Shown piece by piece: positions 4,313 through 9,911 of a stretch of DNA of 64,000 bases. Each line of letters begins with the position of its first letter. Positions within the stretch are counted from its first letter, which is position 1. The notes below the pieces were generated by a model that searched no databases, had not been told where the DNA came from, and worked only from the letters and a program-made list of their open reading frames with translations. The DNA is from Chloroflexota bacterium (GTDB lineage: Bacteria; Chloroflexota; Anaerolineae; UBA2200; JACIWT01), in the NCBI GenBank assembly GCA_014360825.1, contig JACIWT010000002.1:14782-78781 (forward strand), written 5' to 3'. The position numbers and the translations under genes were made by a program.

Positions 4313-5062
4313 ATGGAGCAGAGGAAGAGCCCACAATTAAACTTTTTGAAGGTAGGGCCAATTCGCCTTTTCGAGCAGGTTGCCGAGCAGATTCGCGCTC
4401 TCATAGTTGAGGGACATCTGCAACCAGGGGATAAACTGCCCAGTGAGTTGGAGCTCAGCGAAGCACTCGGTGTCAGCCGGGCGTCTATCCGTGAGGCATT
4501 GCGTGCGTTAGAGTCGAAAGGGTTAATTGAAGTTAGATCTGGGGCGGGTGCGTTTGTCGCATCACGCCCCTTTTCGTTGTTCTCCGCCTCGAGCGAAGCC
4601 GTCGAGTGGCTGATAAAACAGCGCGAGTCATTGCTGCAACTCCTTGAAGTCCGAGAAAGCGTGGAAGGCTTAACGGCCTCTTTGGCAGCAGCCTCTGTGT
4701 CCAGCGAATTGCTGGAAAAATTGGGTCAGGTTGTTCGAGAGCAGGAAAAATTGTCGGGGACACTGTCTGCTCTCGATCGGCAGGTCGAGTTAGACATCCG
4801 TTTTCACGAACTCATCGCTGAGGCGAGTGGTAATACCATAGCAGAAGAGATCGTGGATGCGATTGTGGCCCGTTTTTGCGATAGCAACCGTGCAATACTG
4901 TATCTTAACAAGGGAAACCTCGAGAAGACCATAACGGAACATCGTCGCGTCATCGAGGCCCTGGCTTCTGGAGATCGCGTCAAAGCCGAGGCCGCTATGC
5001 GCGCCCACATAGCCAGGGTGCGAGCAGACATCGAAAAAGTAGAGCAGGAATCGGAACAGTAA
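4313..5062 (+). CDS. GntR/FadR-family transcriptional regulator (N-terminal wHTH, C-terminal FCD domain)
   Basis: HTH segment SELELSEALGVSRASIREALRALESKGLIEVRSGAGAFV followed by an all-alpha FCD-like C-terminus. Confidence 0.85.
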   Translation: MEQRKSPQLNFLKVGPIRLFEQVAEQIRALIVEGHLQPGDKLPSELELSEALGVSRASIREALRALESKGLIEVRSGAGAFVASRPFSLFSASSEAVEWLIKQRESLLQLLEVRESVEGLTASLAAASVSSELLEKLGQVVREQEKLSGTLSALDRQVELDIRFHELIAEASGNTIAEEIVDAIVARFCDSNRAILYLNKGNLEKTITEHRRVIEALASGDRVKAEAAMRAHIARVRADIEKVEQESEQ

Positions 5063-5066
5063 TCAG

Positions 5067-5498
5067 TTGAAGCATGGAGGACAGGAGGTCATGACTTCTA
5101 AGACGGAGATTCGGACGATCAGCAAAATCGTAGATTCAATTGGGTTCCAGGGTCACAGCCTGATCTCCATTAATGATCTTTCCAACGATCAAATCTACGG
5201 CCTCTTTGAGTTGGGTCGGCTCCTGGAGCCTTGGAACCGTTCTGGCATTCATTTGTTGACTGGCAACGTGATGGCCACCCTTTTCTTTCAGCCCAGCACG
5301 CGGACGAGAATGAGTTTTGAGACGGCGATGCACCGGCTGGGCGGCGCCGTCATCACCGAGACCACGCCTCTTATCTCCTCATCAATCGCCAAGGAAGAGA
5401 GCCTGGCAGATATGTTGAAAGTGGTCTCCAAGTATGCTAACGTGATCGTGATCCGGCACCCGAATGCCGACGAGGCAATGTGTGAGTCACGTAAATAA
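5067..5498 (+). pseudogene. aspartate carbamoyltransferase N-terminal (carbamoyl-phosphate-binding) domain fragment, divergent partial duplicate of pyrB
   Basis: Matches PyrB residues ~1-113 ([17 protein letters not shown] ... VIVIRHP) then ends with an unrelated 11-aa tail. Overlaps the next pyrB by 35 nt in another frame. Confidence 0.45.
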
Positions 5499-6288
5499 CG
5501 CGACCCTTTTCTACGAACCCTCCACTCGAACCAGACTCTCATTTGAAAGCGCTATGCTGCGACTCGGTGGTCAGGTGCTTTCTGTAGCCGAAGCCACGGC
5601 CTCAAGTAGTGCTGCCAAAGGAGAAACCCTCTACGACACGGGCAAGATGATCGAGAGCTATGCCGATGTTGCGGTTATTCGGCATCCCCGGAAGGGAAGC
5701 GCCGCAGAGCTGGCCGAAGGCGCCAGTATCCCGGTCATCAACGCTGGCGATGGCGCAGGCCAGCACCCTACGCAGGCCCTGCTGGACCTCTACACGATAC
5801 GGAAAGAGAAGGGCAGGCTCGAGGGTTTGACAGTGGCGCTTGCCGGTGACCTAAAGTATGGTCGCACCGTCCATTCCCTGGCGCCATTACTGGCATACTT
5901 CGGTACGCGTCTCTTCTTTGTTGCGCCGCCAGAACTGGCGATGCCAGCGGAGATCACCGCCGGGTTGCGTGAGCGAGGTGTCGAAGTCGTGGAGACGAGT
6001 GATTTGAGTGATGCAGTGCGTGTGAGTGACGTACTGTATATGACGCGCCTGCAGAAGGAACGTTTTACTGATCTTGCTCAGTATGAGGCACTGAAGGGTT
6101 CATATATCGTGAATAGAGAGGTGATCGACCGTGCCAAGCCTGGGTTGACCGTGATGCACCCTCTGCCGCGGGTAGATGAGATCGCGCCAGAAGTGGATAG
6201 TTATCCCGGTGCTGCATATTTCCGTCAGGCCGCCAACGGTGTGCCGGTCCGCATGGCCTTGTTGGCTTTGGTTACTGGTCAAGCATGA
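5464..6288 (+). CDS. pyrB: aspartate carbamoyltransferase catalytic chain; lacks the first ~40 residues as called
   Basis: STRTR, QHPTQ and HPLPRVDEI ATCase signatures. N-terminus begins ~20 aa before STRTR, whereas E. coli PyrB has ~50. Confidence 0.8.
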
Positions 6289-6382
6289 GAAAGGTTCTCG
6301 TCGTCTTGCTGGGTTCCGAACCAACGTGCTGAACGGGGCCCGGTCCACCCTAGAGGTGCGGTGGCAGACGTGAGTTGGAGCA

Positions 6383-7779: not shown

Positions 7780-7856
7780 ATCCCCGGGCTATGCCTGTTT
7801 TTCCCCATCCAGAGAGCGCAGTTTGACCGGTGGGTTACCAGATTTCTGACTAGAAG

Positions 7857-8819
7857 ATGGCTGTGACCGCGTGTTGTGCATCTAATCGAAAGCGATTTCG
7901 CGACGTCTTGGCTATTCGTAACCCGGTTATACTTGGCTCTGGGCCTCCTGGTCACAGTGCCAAAGGTCTTGTTCGATATGGCCAGTATGCCGGAGCTGTG
8001 GTAAGCAAATCAATCACTTTCCTGCCACGGAAGGGCAATCCCCATCCCCGTGTTGTCAGTCTAGGGAATTTTGGGCTAATCAATTGGGAGAACCTTCCGA
8101 ACCCGGGCTACAAGCGATTTGCCGATGAATTGCGCGCTGCTAAGGCCCAGTGCAAGTGTCCAGTTATTGCTTCATTGGGCCCTTCTCACAATATAGACGA
8201 ACTCAGGACGATGGCTTTGAGCTTCGAAGAGGCGGGCGCTGATGCATTAGAGTTGAACTTTAAATGGGGCTTCGACCCGAATACCGGTCAAACTCGGTAT
8301 AACATGCAGGCTGGCAAAGAGGGCTTTGAGAGCACCTCCATTTTTGAGATCATTGTAACGCTGAAGAAAGCAGTGTCTATACCCATCATTGCCAAACTCG
8401 CGGCCTTGGCTGGCGATCTCGTGAATAACGCCAAGGCGGCAGAATCGGCAGGTGCTGATGCGATTACCGCTATCAATACCATTTTCCCGGCGATGAAAAT
8501 AGATATCACGCGGCAAAAACCAGCTCTCTCCACCTGTTTCGGTGGCTTATCTGGTAAGTCAATACTACCCTTATCCGTGGCTACAGTGTATAGGATCTAC
8601 GAAGCAGTGAATATACCGATCATTGGCTGCGGCGGTGTGACTTCTGGAGAGGATGCCCTAGAGATGATTATGGCCGGGGCGGATGCCGTTCAAATTTGCA
8701 CTGCCGCGATGGTGGAGGGCCCCTCTGTTTTCCGGCGCATCAACGATGAAATAAATACGTTAGTGAAGGGGATAGGGTTCGGTTCCGTGAATGAGTGCCG
8801 CGGGGTGGCACATCTCTAA
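7857..8819 (+). CDS. pyrD: dihydroorotate dehydrogenase-like FMN TIM-barrel protein (PyrD class 1 family); canonical catalytic Cys/Ser segment not conserved
   Basis: NPVILGSG, GNPHPRVV, GLINWENLPNPG and IIGCGGVTSGEDALEMIMAGA match the class 1 DHODH/DPD-like fold. The NLSCPN motif is replaced by NFKWGF. Exact start uncertain. Confidence 0.7.
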   Translation: MAVTACCASNRKRFRDVLAIRNPVILGSGPPGHSAKGLVRYGQYAGAVVSKSITFLPRKGNPHPRVVSLGNFGLINWENLPNPGYKRFADELRAAKAQCKCPVIASLGPSHNIDELRTMALSFEEAGADALELNFKWGFDPNTGQTRYNMQAGKEGFESTSIFEIIVTLKKAVSIPIIAKLAALAGDLVNNAKAAESAGADAITAINTIFPAMKIDITRQKPALSTCFGGLSGKSILPLSVATVYRIYEAVNIPIIGCGGVTSGEDALEMIMAGADAVQICTAAMVEGPSVFRRINDEINTLVKGIGFGSVNECRGVAHL

Positions 8820-8933
8820 ATACGCGCAATGGCTGCTGTGAGATTTCTCTCAGGAGCTGGCATTATTGGCCTATATTGGCCAATCGAAATGGAATAATCT
8901 ATCAATACAATTAACAATTAAGGAGGTTGGACA

Positions 8934-9911
8934 ATGAGGTTACTGATAGCTTTGGGCGGTAACGCGATAAAGCAAGCTCACGAGCAAGGCACCGCGGAGG
9001 AACAATTCAGGAACTGCGGGGTAACCACCAGATTCATTGCTGAGATTGTCGGCAGAATGGAAGAGGATGACCGGCTGATCATAACCCATGGCAATGGTCC
9101 GCAAGCAGGCAACCTTTTGGTGCAGCAAGAGATGAGCAAGGGTGTCGTACCCCCTCAGACGATGGACATCGTTGGAGCGATGACCCAAGGGCAGATAGGT
9201 TATATGCTTCAGCAGACGCTGATGAATTACCTGAAAGATAAAGGTTTGGATGTGCCTGTGTGCGCGGTAGTGAATCAAGTGTTGGTGAGTGGGGATGACC
9301 AGGAGTTCATTGGCGAAGCGGCTTCGAAGCCTGTGGGGAACTTTTTCACCGAGGAGGAAGCCAAGAGACTTAAGCAAGAGCATCCGGAGTACATCATAAA
9401 GAAAGTCAAACCGAATGGGGAGAGAGTTTGGAGGAGGACAGTACCATCTCCCGATCCAATAGCCAACGTGGAGAGCGAAGCGATCAAGCGGATGGTGGAT
9501 GCAGGCATCGTTGTCATTGCATCCGGGGGTGGGGGGATACCAGTGGTGTTAGATGAGAGAGGTCACTATCAGGGTGTGGAGGCGGTGATAGATAAAGACC
9601 TGGCCGGAGAGCGATTAGCGGAGGTGGTCAATGCGGACGTCTTCCTGATTTTGACCGATGTGGAGAAGGTGAAGTTGAACTTTGGCAAGCCTGATGAGAG
9701 GGAGATAGACCGGATGACGATATCGGAGGCCAAGAGATATCTGGCAGAGGGGCATTTTCTTGCCGGGAGCATGGGGCCCAAGGTCAAGGCGTGTATAAGG
9801 TTCTTAGAGTGGGGTGGGGAGACGGCGATCATAACCTCATTGGATAAGGCAATCGATGCTTTGGAGGGCAGGACTGGTACCAGGATTGTGCGAGATCGCG
9901 TTAAGAATTGA
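8934..9911 (+). CDS. arcC: carbamate kinase
   Basis: ALGGNA and THGNGPQAG motifs; length and overall similarity to ArcC. SD AAGGAGG upstream. Confidence 0.9.
   Translation: MRLLIALGGNAIKQAHEQGTAEEQFRNCGVTTRFIAEIVGRMEEDDRLIITHGNGPQAGNLLVQQEMSKGVVPPQTMDIVGAMTQGQIGYMLQQTLMNYLKDKGLDVPVCAVVNQVLVSGDDQEFIGEAASKPVGNFFTEEEAKRLKQEHPEYIIKKVKPNGERVWRRTVPSPDPIANVESEAIKRMVDAGIVVIASGGGGIPVVLDERGHYQGVEAVIDKDLAGERLAEVVNADVFLILTDVEKVKLNFGKPDEREIDRMTISEAKRYLAEGHFLAGSMGPKVKACIRFLEWGGETAIITSLDKAIDALEGRTGTRIVRDRVKN

Follow-up and report, generated by a model that had tools for sequence, protein, structure and literature searches.

A probable mosaic and recently inactivated remnant of a catabolic cyclic-ureide gene cluster in a Chloroflexota genome

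Between positions 4313 and 9911 of the 64,000-nucleotide (nt) stretch of Chloroflexota DNA analyzed here (contig JACIWT010000002.1 of assembly GCA_014360825.1; hereafter the window), seven co-oriented open reading frames (ORFs) on the + strand encode a GntR-type regulator, parts of a transcarbamoylase and of a cyclic amidohydrolase, a flavoprotein resembling dihydroorotate dehydrogenase (DHODH), and a carbamate kinase, as judged from the ORF translations and from matches to Pfam and NCBIfam models. The source is a Chloroflexi metagenome-assembled genome, and the NCBI protein P0001 is 100% identical to the flavoprotein, which has the DHO_dh fold. A first-pass annotation made from the DNA letters alone had described an ordered cluster of these five gene types, and its positions and families are borne out. 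All five gene types are present, but two of the five, the transcarbamoylase and the amidohydrolase, are not single intact genes. The features of the cluster are as follows.

4313–5062, + strand: intact GntR/FCD (FadR-type) regulator (PF00392, 84 bits; PF07729, 90 bits)
5067–5477, + strand: 5′ remnant of a "family A" transcarbamoylase, about 129 codons with a likely start at ATG 5091, covering only positions 2–113 of OTCace_N
5478–5499, + strand: junction filler of 22 nt, which includes the stop of the first ORF (TAA, 5496–5498) and matches neither family
5500–6288, + strand: 3′ remnant of a canonical PyrB-type aspartate carbamoyltransferase (ATCase; TIGR00670) without codons 1–48, in a frame that differs from that of the 5′ remnant
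6383–7779, + strand: cyclic amidohydrolase (L-hydantoinase/allantoinase/dihydroorotase-like) with a 1-nt deletion at 6755–6757, leaving ORFs 6383–6796 and 6820–7779 in different frames
7857–8819, + strand: Cys-less DHODH-like flavin mononucleotide (FMN) protein with an E-L-N-F-K-W loop, intact ORF (PF01180, 173 bits)
8934–9911, + strand: carbamate kinase, intact ORF with a strong ribosome-binding site (TIGR00746 arcC equivalog, 368.1 bits against a cut-off of 358.25, full length 2–319)

The transcarbamoylase is divided between two overlapping, out-of-frame ORFs (5067–5498 and 5464–6288), each with its own STRTR motif. The first covers the OTCace_N profile from 2 to 113 and the second from about 40 (to 148), part of the domain thus being present twice, and the second ORF runs through to the end of the OTCace domain. 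By tblastn, homology to family A stops at nt 5477 and homology to PyrB begins at nt 5500, which corresponds to residue 49 of the full-length protein. The 5′ remnant, annotated at NCBI as hypothetical protein H5T64_01360, is 69–77% identical to a distinct family with SINDL-type signature motifs (family A); it scores only 92 bits against TIGR00670, and STRT is the sole ATCase motif present. Family-A members adjoin racemase-family, cyclic amidohydrolase, and carbamate kinase genes (contexts L028 and L029, on error-ridden contigs). The search with the 143-residue 5′ fragment listed 120 matches, all of at most 251 residues and many clipped by contig ends or long-read frameshifts, and yielded no full-length sequence of the family, which is evidently of about 330 residues. 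Short queries seem to return only short, often truncated targets, an effect that could wrongly suggest a single-domain family.

The 3′ piece (5464–6285) passes the TIGR00670 equivalog model with 349 bits against a cut-off of 237, over model positions 41–303. It is 75–84% identical to hundreds of Chloroflexi ATCases/PyrB of 310–311 residues, among them the full-length proteins P0122, P0123, and P0136 (84, 83, and 80%), to which it aligns from their residue 49. The ATCase signatures named in the first-pass annotation can be read in the translations: this piece carries STRT, HPTQ, HPLP, and RLQ (the RxQ motif), with QHPTQ and HPLPRVDEI both in the second ORF. The corresponding set, S[TR]RT, HP[ST]Q, and HP[LG]P together with the ATCase-specific RxQ, has been tabulated (PMC4016543). 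A complete ATCase polypeptide of about 310 residues with a full carbamoyl-phosphate domain is absent from the locus. A tandem duplication within one gene was considered as the origin of this arrangement and rejected: where the two pieces overlap, they share only 56% identity, and their nearest families differ. A homologous chimera or assembly join was likewise rejected on account of the non-homologous join (residue ~129 to 49), the unique filler between the pieces, and the recurrence of the join in other sequencing runs.

The amidohydrolase gene is broken by the loss of one nucleotide relative to its orthologues in two intact Anaerolineae clusters, L007 and L001, and no uninterrupted frame spans it. 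Identity to the intact 463-residue L007 enzyme is 75% and 78% for the two halves, and identity to the L001 enzyme is 63% and 75%. Where the DNA of the window reads GATTTTG-TCTATTT, the aligned orthologue reads GATTTTGGGCTATTT; the Gly codon (GGG/GGC) of a conserved D-F-G-L-F-G-G has been cut to GT (GATTTT-GGG-CTATTT in L007, GATTTT-GT-CTATTT in the window). Both halves match PF01979 (Amidohydro_1), and DPHVH, AFKTF, and GSDHAP can be found in the translation, so the fold and the metal ligands are recognizable; neither half alone reaches a curated subfamily cut-off. The intact L007 orthologue passes both the allantoinase model TIGR03178 (368 bits against 357.85) and the pyrC_multi domain model (292 against 279), and among solved structures the Arthrobacter L-hydantoinase 1GKR is nearest to it (345 bits, with 245 for allantoinase and 189 for dihydroorotase (DHOase)). 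The window enzyme has the DHOase-like motif HVHMREPG, whose Arg may be carboxylate-binding, at the place where HyuH has HVHIIDMD in the 1GKR alignment. Programmed frameshifting was considered as a way of reading through the lesion and rated unlikely, no canonical slippery heptamer preceding the site.

Split genes in a metagenome-assembled genome invite the suspicion of a sequencing or assembly artefact that hides an intact true genome, and other long-read contigs of related loci are indeed full of artefactual frameshifts. Two Logan assemblies from other SRA runs, however, reproduce both lesions and the identical junction without gaps. One of these (L024, from SRR28822788) is 99.74% identical to the window, with 18 single-nucleotide polymorphisms (SNPs) and no gaps over 6960 nt; the other (L025, from SRR11866715) is 99.9% identical with 2 SNPs and no gaps. 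Because they differ from the window by 18 and 2 substitutions, the two assemblies are independent samples of a slightly variable population, and they carry both lesions base for base. Their shared layout comprises LexA, GntR, a 135-residue OTCace_N ORF, a 268-residue transcarbamoylase ORF, amidohydrolase ORFs of 135 and 319 residues, the DHO_dh protein, and carbamate kinase. Unique sequence at the junction joins pieces at non-homologous positions, which also speaks against an artefact, as does the location of the deletion outside any long homopolymer. Both lesions are real and not assembly errors, and an intact true genome behind them is scarcely credible. As for their age, the 5′ remnant shows no deviation at any of 38 conserved columns, and the 3′ piece none at the 113 columns conserved to 97% or more among 115 PyrB homologues. 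Because both transcarbamoylase remnants are free of deviations at conserved columns, their sequences point to a recent rearrangement.

The flavoprotein gene that follows is intact. Its product remains below the PyrD cut-offs (TIGR01037, 242 bits against 270; NF005574, 237.5 against 269) and is nearer to class 1B PyrD than to PreA (NF006183, 132 bits). The DHO_dh fold and the FMN-binding residues are conserved (Lys, Asn, and the GGLSG/GGV motifs). In a HMMER alignment to Lactococcus lactis DHODH-B (1EP1), N-F-K-W-G-F-D-P-N stands opposite N-I-S-C---P-N, so that the catalytic Cys is replaced by Trp. The first-pass annotation had picked out NFKWGF and concluded that the canonical catalytic motif is missing, and the comparison confirms it, for this protein and for all of its close relatives. 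Neither the catalytic Cys of class 1 nor the Ser of class 2 is found in any of 40 family members; close relatives all share E-[LVI]-[DN]-F-K-[WY], and Lys136 is invariant in the 40. The FK[WY] family amounts to about five clusters at 50% identity among the 1.84 billion representatives covered by a profile search, below which come canonical PyrD proteins with S-C-P. A metagenome scan with the window protein returned two close relatives only, one of them a copy of L001, and otherwise canonical PyrD loci at 29–47% identity. Look-ups by exact sequence with the window protein and with P0001 matched no recorded contig, and genomic context was therefore taken from homologues. No PyrK-like partner was matched by tblastn in the window, and a literature search found no paper describing the FK[WY] flavoprotein family. 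The carbamate kinase encoded by the last gene of the cluster shares only 45% identity with its L007 counterpart; the coding-strand GC skew of this gene is +0.31, with neighbors ranging from −0.05 to +0.21, and the gene may be of separate origin.

Could these genes simply make pyrimidines? A biosynthetic pyrB-pyrC-pyrD operon fed with carbamoyl phosphate by carbamate kinase, an arrangement that has been suggested for some archaea, had been the alternative kept by the first-pass annotation. The signature-bearing 3′ transcarbamoylase piece does fall in the canonical Chloroflexi PyrB orthogroup, a placement that had been named there as the first half of the case against a catabolic role; the orthologous amidohydrolase passes pyrC_multi, and class 1B PyrD proteins are the nearest characterized relatives of the flavoprotein. 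On the other hand, the flavoprotein has no catalytic Cys and no PyrK in the window, two of the three "pyr" genes are disrupted, and the orthologous clusters are catabolic in context, with importers, ammonia-lyases, and carbamoylases. A related lineage moreover has a canonical pyrB-pyrE-pyrK-pyrD operon, the PyrD of which is only 32% identical to the window protein. No PyrE, PyrK, or canonical PyrD was found elsewhere in the window by tblastn, and neither carAB nor pyrF was seen there in a reading of the ORF translations; on this footing, it is correct that pyrE, pyrF, and carAB are not adjacent to the cluster. We regard a biosynthetic operon as highly improbable.

Membership of the PyrB orthogroup is compatible with more than one genomic setting. 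P0136 sits in a pyrB-pyrE-pyrK-pyrD operon. P0123 passes the PyrB equivalog model, and its gene (within L074:231-6185; ENA ERZ23498365 scaffold_31288) lies 26 nt downstream of one for a dihydropyrimidinase-like amidohydrolase (hydantoinase), among genes for xanthine-dehydrogenase-like flavin adenine dinucleotide and 2Fe-2S subunits, an IclR regulator, and an F420-dependent LLM oxidoreductase. The two proteins are 80% identical to each other and, on sequence grounds, form one orthogroup that occurs in both biosynthetic-operon and hydantoinase/xanthine-dehydrogenase-type contexts. Because of the neighborhood of the P0123 gene, canonical-type ATCases may also be used catabolically in Chloroflexi.

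The amidohydrolase and flavoprotein of the window form a pair that is conserved at 69–78% identity in three Anaerolineae loci, which have the following gene orders.

L007: GntR, ATCase-type transcarbamoylase, five ATP-binding cassette (ABC) importer genes, amidohydrolase, flavoprotein, methylaspartate ammonia-lyase, M20 carbamoylase-family hydrolase, second methylaspartate ammonia-lyase, LUD-domain protein, Asp/Glu/hydantoin-racemase-family protein, carbamate kinase, aminotransferase
L001: IclR, ATCase-type transcarbamoylase, importer, amidohydrolase, flavoprotein, adenylosuccinate-lyase-like protein; further on PrpD, AllF, and AllG
L030: amidohydrolase, flavoprotein, AllF, AllG

The transcarbamoylases of L001 and L007 score above the cut-off of the ATCase equivalog model (348 and 351 bits, respectively) and preserve both RxQ and the Asp-binding Arg. 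Being only 50–56% identical to the PyrB orthogroup, they represent a dedicated paralogue. The transcarbamoylase of another locus, L008, lacks RxQ. In L007:10995-15484, two bona fide methylaspartate ammonia-lyases (TIGR01502, 559 and 529 bits against a cut-off of 286) flank the M20 gene directly downstream of the DHODH-like gene, a pairing that hints at a 3-methylaspartate intermediate. Homologues of AllF and AllG (FdrA/YlbE-type) adjoin the DHODH-like gene in two Chloroflexi contigs (L001:16076-19081 and L030:2087-4577). In Escherichia coli, AllF and AllG are subunits of oxamic transcarbamylase, and their homologues may provide an alternative carbamoyl-phosphate-forming step. Across the 17 loci that encode FK[WY] flavoproteins, reductase, ring hydrolase, and decarbamoylase are co-located in different genomes: nine have a cyclic amidohydrolase, seven an M20 hydrolase, four a transcarbamoylase, two a carbamate kinase, and two AllF/AllG. 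Alphaproteobacterial loci pair the flavoprotein with an M20 hydrolase, a cyclic amidohydrolase, and PrpD-family genes, and xanthine-dehydrogenase-like genes stand beside it in L009. The recurring theme is thus a flavoprotein with a ring hydrolase and a decarbamoylating enzyme, the last step being predicted as phosphorolytic in Chloroflexi and hydrolytic in Alphaproteobacteria. Because of the gene content of L007 and L001 and the decarbamoylating partners across the 17 loci, the conclusion that the ancestral module was catabolic appears to hold.

Whether such a pathway still operates in the window genome is a separate question. The first-pass annotation had proposed a GntR-controlled, ATP-yielding route for orotate or carbamoyl-aspartate, consisting of a DHODH-like reductase, a DHOase, an ATCase running in reverse, and carbamate kinase. 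All of these enzyme classes do lie within one co-oriented block; the PyrB-type fragment retains every aspartate- and carbamoyl-phosphate-binding motif, the amidohydrolase its DHOase-like HVHMREPG and AFKTF, and the carbamate kinase passes its equivalog model. Yet residues 1–48 of the ATCase are missing, and the partial domain in front of it is unrelated and runs into a stop; a frameshift interrupts the amidohydrolase; both lesions are fixed across all three data sets; and the DHODH-like protein is without the catalytic acid/base of every characterized DHODH. A working route of this kind is therefore improbable. The catabolic, ATP-yielding reading fits the ancestral module, whose intact Anaerolineae clusters look catabolic, and fails for an operating route at this locus, where a truncated hybrid and a frameshift recur in independent assemblies.

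The intact ORFs left at the locus are only those of the regulator, the flavoprotein, and the carbamate kinase. Because there is no intact transcarbamoylase and the ring hydrolase is frameshifted, the pathway is most likely not functional at this locus. Of the cluster genes, moreover, only the amidohydrolase and flavoprotein are orthologous to those of L007 and L001; the GntR regulator (no tblastn match to the GntR of the L007 cluster), both transcarbamoylase pieces (the 3′ piece is only 55–56% identical to the cluster-specific ATCase paralogue of the relatives), and the carbamate kinase are not. These latter genes would be of other origins than their L007 and L001 counterparts, which makes the cluster a mosaic on sequence comparison. 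We therefore favor the reading that the locus is probably what remains of a catabolic cyclic-ureide cluster, of mosaic composition and recently inactivated, the ureide being a dihydroorotate-, hydantoin-, or pyrimidine-like ring. Several observations weigh against it. The PyrB-type fragment is pristine and in principle translatable from ATG 5464 as a 274-residue protein. A −1 ribosomal slip at GTC-C would bring the amidohydrolase back into frame, reading D-F-V-L-F-G-G, and some function may therefore persist. The SNPs between assemblies, with 0 in the transcarbamoylase pieces and 2 in the amidohydrolase, both synonymous, are too few to show relaxed selection. Finally, no obvious electron-transfer partner lies near the DHODH-like gene.

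The surroundings of the cluster include the following features.

3057–3206: two further tRNAs on the left side
4131–4159, + strand: sigma-70-like promoter match upstream of the GntR gene (TTGACA-17-TATCCT with TG, 10/12 matches; a consensus match only)
9975–10003, both strands: bidirectional terminator-like hairpin at the cluster end, with a 13-bp stem and T-rich tails on both strands
10065–10421, − strand: tRNA-Leu/Cys/Gly/Phe cluster (ARAGORN and Rfam), the right-hand boundary and a synteny anchor

The count of sigma-70-like sites in the region shows no excess over shuffled expectation. The GntR gene ends 4 nt from the first transcarbamoylase ORF. The tRNA genes on the two sides bracket the block from LexA to carbamate kinase, and a search for riboswitches and other RNA elements, flanking repeats, and insertion-sequence ends gave only tRNAs and chance-level short repeats. 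The Leu-Cys-Gly-Phe tRNAs, followed by an Rrf2 gene and an AsnC-response-regulator gene, are syntenic with a DHODH-like locus of Anaerolineales UBA6131 (L004:19078-19734). The flavoprotein there instead has a HutI-like amidohydrolase, LarA, and malic enzyme as neighbors, so that the surroundings of the DHODH-like gene are wholly different from those in the window. Given this synteny with differing inner genes and the mosaic orthology described above, the flavoprotein is the stable element of an otherwise variable region.

Two further observations concern the rest of the window. Four receiver paralogues with a C-terminal FPTDEY lie at 11146–14957, one as an AsnC-receiver fusion (11146–11982) and three as stand-alone proteins (12022–12399, 12377–12832, and 14499–14957); they are interleaved with NuoE- and NuoF-like genes (12829–14548), next to an ACT-domain protein and a histidine kinase. 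A formate-dehydrogenase-alpha-like gene (25060–27828, − strand) consists of one continuous frame that three in-frame stops interrupt. One of them, the TGA in CARL-U-HS (26725–26727), is expected, as a selenocysteine codon. The others, a TAG at 27448–27450 and a TAA at 26125–26127, are unexpected, and both stand where Gln is conserved (GNCTL*DLA compared with ELQSL of the paralogue at 30406–32187, and RGQNNV*GACDMG) as C-to-T changes of CAG/CAA, which suggests a second recently inactivated gene within the same 64 kb. Loss of HypC/HypD at 18854–20075 was considered as further decay and rejected, both genes being intact.

Direction of flux, substrate, ATP yield, and the reaction and redox partner of the flavoprotein are all things that we infer for the intact module from its gene content. 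An ABC importer would take in the ring compound, and the Cys-less DHODH-like flavoprotein would carry out a redox step on the ring. Ring opening by the hydantoinase/DHOase-like amidohydrolase would then yield an N-carbamoyl amino acid, for which N-carbamoyl-aspartate or its 3-methyl analogue is the likeliest candidate. Phosphorolysis by the ATCase-type transcarbamoylase would give carbamoyl phosphate and the amino acid, carbamate kinase would convert carbamoyl phosphate and ADP into ATP, NH3, and CO2, and the amino acid would be deaminated by methylaspartate ammonia-lyase or the adenylosuccinate-lyase-like enzyme. Ring opening to N-carbamoyl-(3-methyl)aspartate is suggested because the cluster ATCases have aspartate-specific motifs and L007 has two bona fide methylaspartate ammonia-lyases. 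As to the ring itself, it could be a dihydroorotate, because the orthologue passes pyrC_multi and the window enzyme has the DHOase-like HVHMREPG. With the L-hydantoinase 1GKR as the nearest solved structure, a 5-substituted hydantoin, for instance 5-carboxymethylhydantoin, is another possibility.

The second of these options leads to a wider alternative, in which the ancestral module did not act on orotate or dihydroorotate at all but served hydantoin utilization (hyu-like) or a reductive purine branch (2,8-dioxopurine/urate), with the flavoprotein dearomatizing or reducing another N-heterocycle. The 1GKR match fits this proposal, as do the M20 carbamoylase and racemase-family genes of L007 and the xanthine-dehydrogenase-like genes of L009. 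The P0123 cluster, with its xanthine dehydrogenase, hydantoinase, ATCase, and F420-dependent LLM oxidoreductase, resembles a Chloroflexota variant described in PMC12507026, where the Clostridioides difficile PF01180 enzyme UacX is assigned the reductive dearomatization of 2,8-dioxopurine. The module itself points elsewhere, with no SsnA, XdhD, or YgeW-type transcarbamoylase in the window, L001, or L007, with L001 and L007 transcarbamoylases that keep the aspartate-specific RxQ and pass the ATCase model, and with two methylaspartate ammonia-lyases that indicate a (methyl)aspartate product. We consider a hydantoin or purine assignment unlikely, if less so than an operating orotate route in the window.

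Comparison with known systems shows which parts of the favored cyclic-ureide module have precedent. The reductive urate/2,8-dioxopurine pathway comprises XdhD, YgfK or UacX, SsnA, HyuA, YgeW, YqeA, YgeY, and YgeX, of which YgeW and YqeA make ATP (PMC12507026; bioRxiv 10.1101/2025.04.24.650524). Its logic is the same, with a flavin reductase (in C. difficile a PF01180 DHO_dh protein), a ring-opening amidohydrolase, ureido phosphorolysis by a transcarbamoylase, and ATP from carbamate kinase, and it likewise has an M20 hydrolase as an alternative decarbamoylase. It differs in that the transcarbamoylases here are of ATCase type (PyrB-like, ATCase paralogue, and family A) rather than the knotted YgeW type, that YgeX, like SsnA and XdhD, is missing from the window, L001, and L007, and that the flavoprotein here is nearer class 1B PyrD than PreA; it also has no catalytic Cys, a loss that UacX may or may not share. 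Barba et al. (PMC4016543) predicted a module of dehydrogenase, cyclic amidohydrolase, carbamoyltransferase, and carbamate kinase, along with pseudo-ATCases; they described uncharacterized dehydrogenases resembling DHODH and dihydropyrimidine dehydrogenase (X1 and X2) and ATCase-like paralogues acting in catabolism alongside carbamate kinase and enzymes resembling allantoinase, as exemplified by a ureidoglycine carbamoyltransferase in Rubrobacter. The logic of the clusters related to the window matches this predicted "reaction module," but unlike the pseudo-ATCases of groups 1–3, the L001 and L007 transcarbamoylases keep genuine RxQ and HP[LM]P motifs.

Reductive pyrimidine catabolism (PydA/PreAT, the dihydropyrimidinase PydB, and the beta-ureidopropionase PydC) likewise has a DHO_dh-fold flavoprotein that reduces a C=C bond, followed by hydrolysis of the ring and removal of the carbamoyl group, and the alphaproteobacterial loci, with flavoprotein, amidohydrolase, and M20 hydrolase, follow the same hydrolytic pattern. 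In contrast, the module here has no PreT/Fe-S partner and no catalytic Cys, its product is probably an alpha-amino dicarboxylate rather than a beta-amino acid, and the last step in Chloroflexi is predicted to be phosphorolytic (transcarbamoylase and carbamate kinase, or AllF/AllG), which would conserve energy. The hyu system of Arthrobacter aurescens, consisting of the L-hydantoinase HyuH (1GKR), the L-carbamoylase HyuC, and the hydantoin racemase HyuA, is echoed in L007 by HyuH-like amidohydrolase, M20 carbamoylase-family, and racemase-family proteins, but includes neither a flavoprotein nor a transcarbamoylase nor a carbamate kinase. Clostridium oroticum ferments orotate with an orotate reductase, a dihydroorotase, a ureidosuccinase, and a 5-carboxymethylhydantoinase, along a route from orotate through dihydroorotate and N-carbamoyl-aspartate to aspartate. 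In this classical pathway, the carbamoyl group is removed hydrolytically, and the orotate reductase is a Cys-containing, PyrK-linked enzyme of class 1B type. A hydantoinase acting on 5-carboxymethylhydantoin would fit the HyuH-like enzyme of our clusters giving N-carbamoyl-aspartate. The literature search found no paper linking C. oroticum orotate fermentation to a cluster of ATCase and carbamate kinase, and searches for an ATCase and carbamate kinase route for orotate, orotate-like rings, or carbamoyl-aspartate gave nothing specific.

The general scheme is already known; the enzyme set is a new variation on it, and the copy in the window is decayed. For users of automated annotation, this copy is a warning, in that pipelines and motif reading call an ATCase, a DHOase, and a DHODH where there are a hybrid pseudogene, a frameshifted gene, and a protein barred from the known DHODH mechanism. 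The intact orthologues are a stronger lead than the window locus. A bolder proposal, which we offer tentatively and would sooner doubt than assert, is that L007-type clusters encode a previously undescribed energy-conserving fermentation of cyclic ureides, built from the F-K-W flavoprotein, a HyuH/DHOase-like enzyme, a catabolic ATCase paralogue working in reverse, carbamate kinase, and methylaspartate ammonia-lyase, and that the copy in the window shows this pathway in the course of disappearing, by way of an illegitimate fusion with a pyrB-type gene. In the FK[WY] proteins we would have a small DHODH-fold family that operates without the canonical Cys/Ser catalytic base. Known routes of substrate-level phosphorylation through carbamoyl phosphate make a short list, comprising those from arginine, agmatine, oxalurate, and urate, to which, if the proposal is true, reverse ATCase with carbamate kinase would add another.

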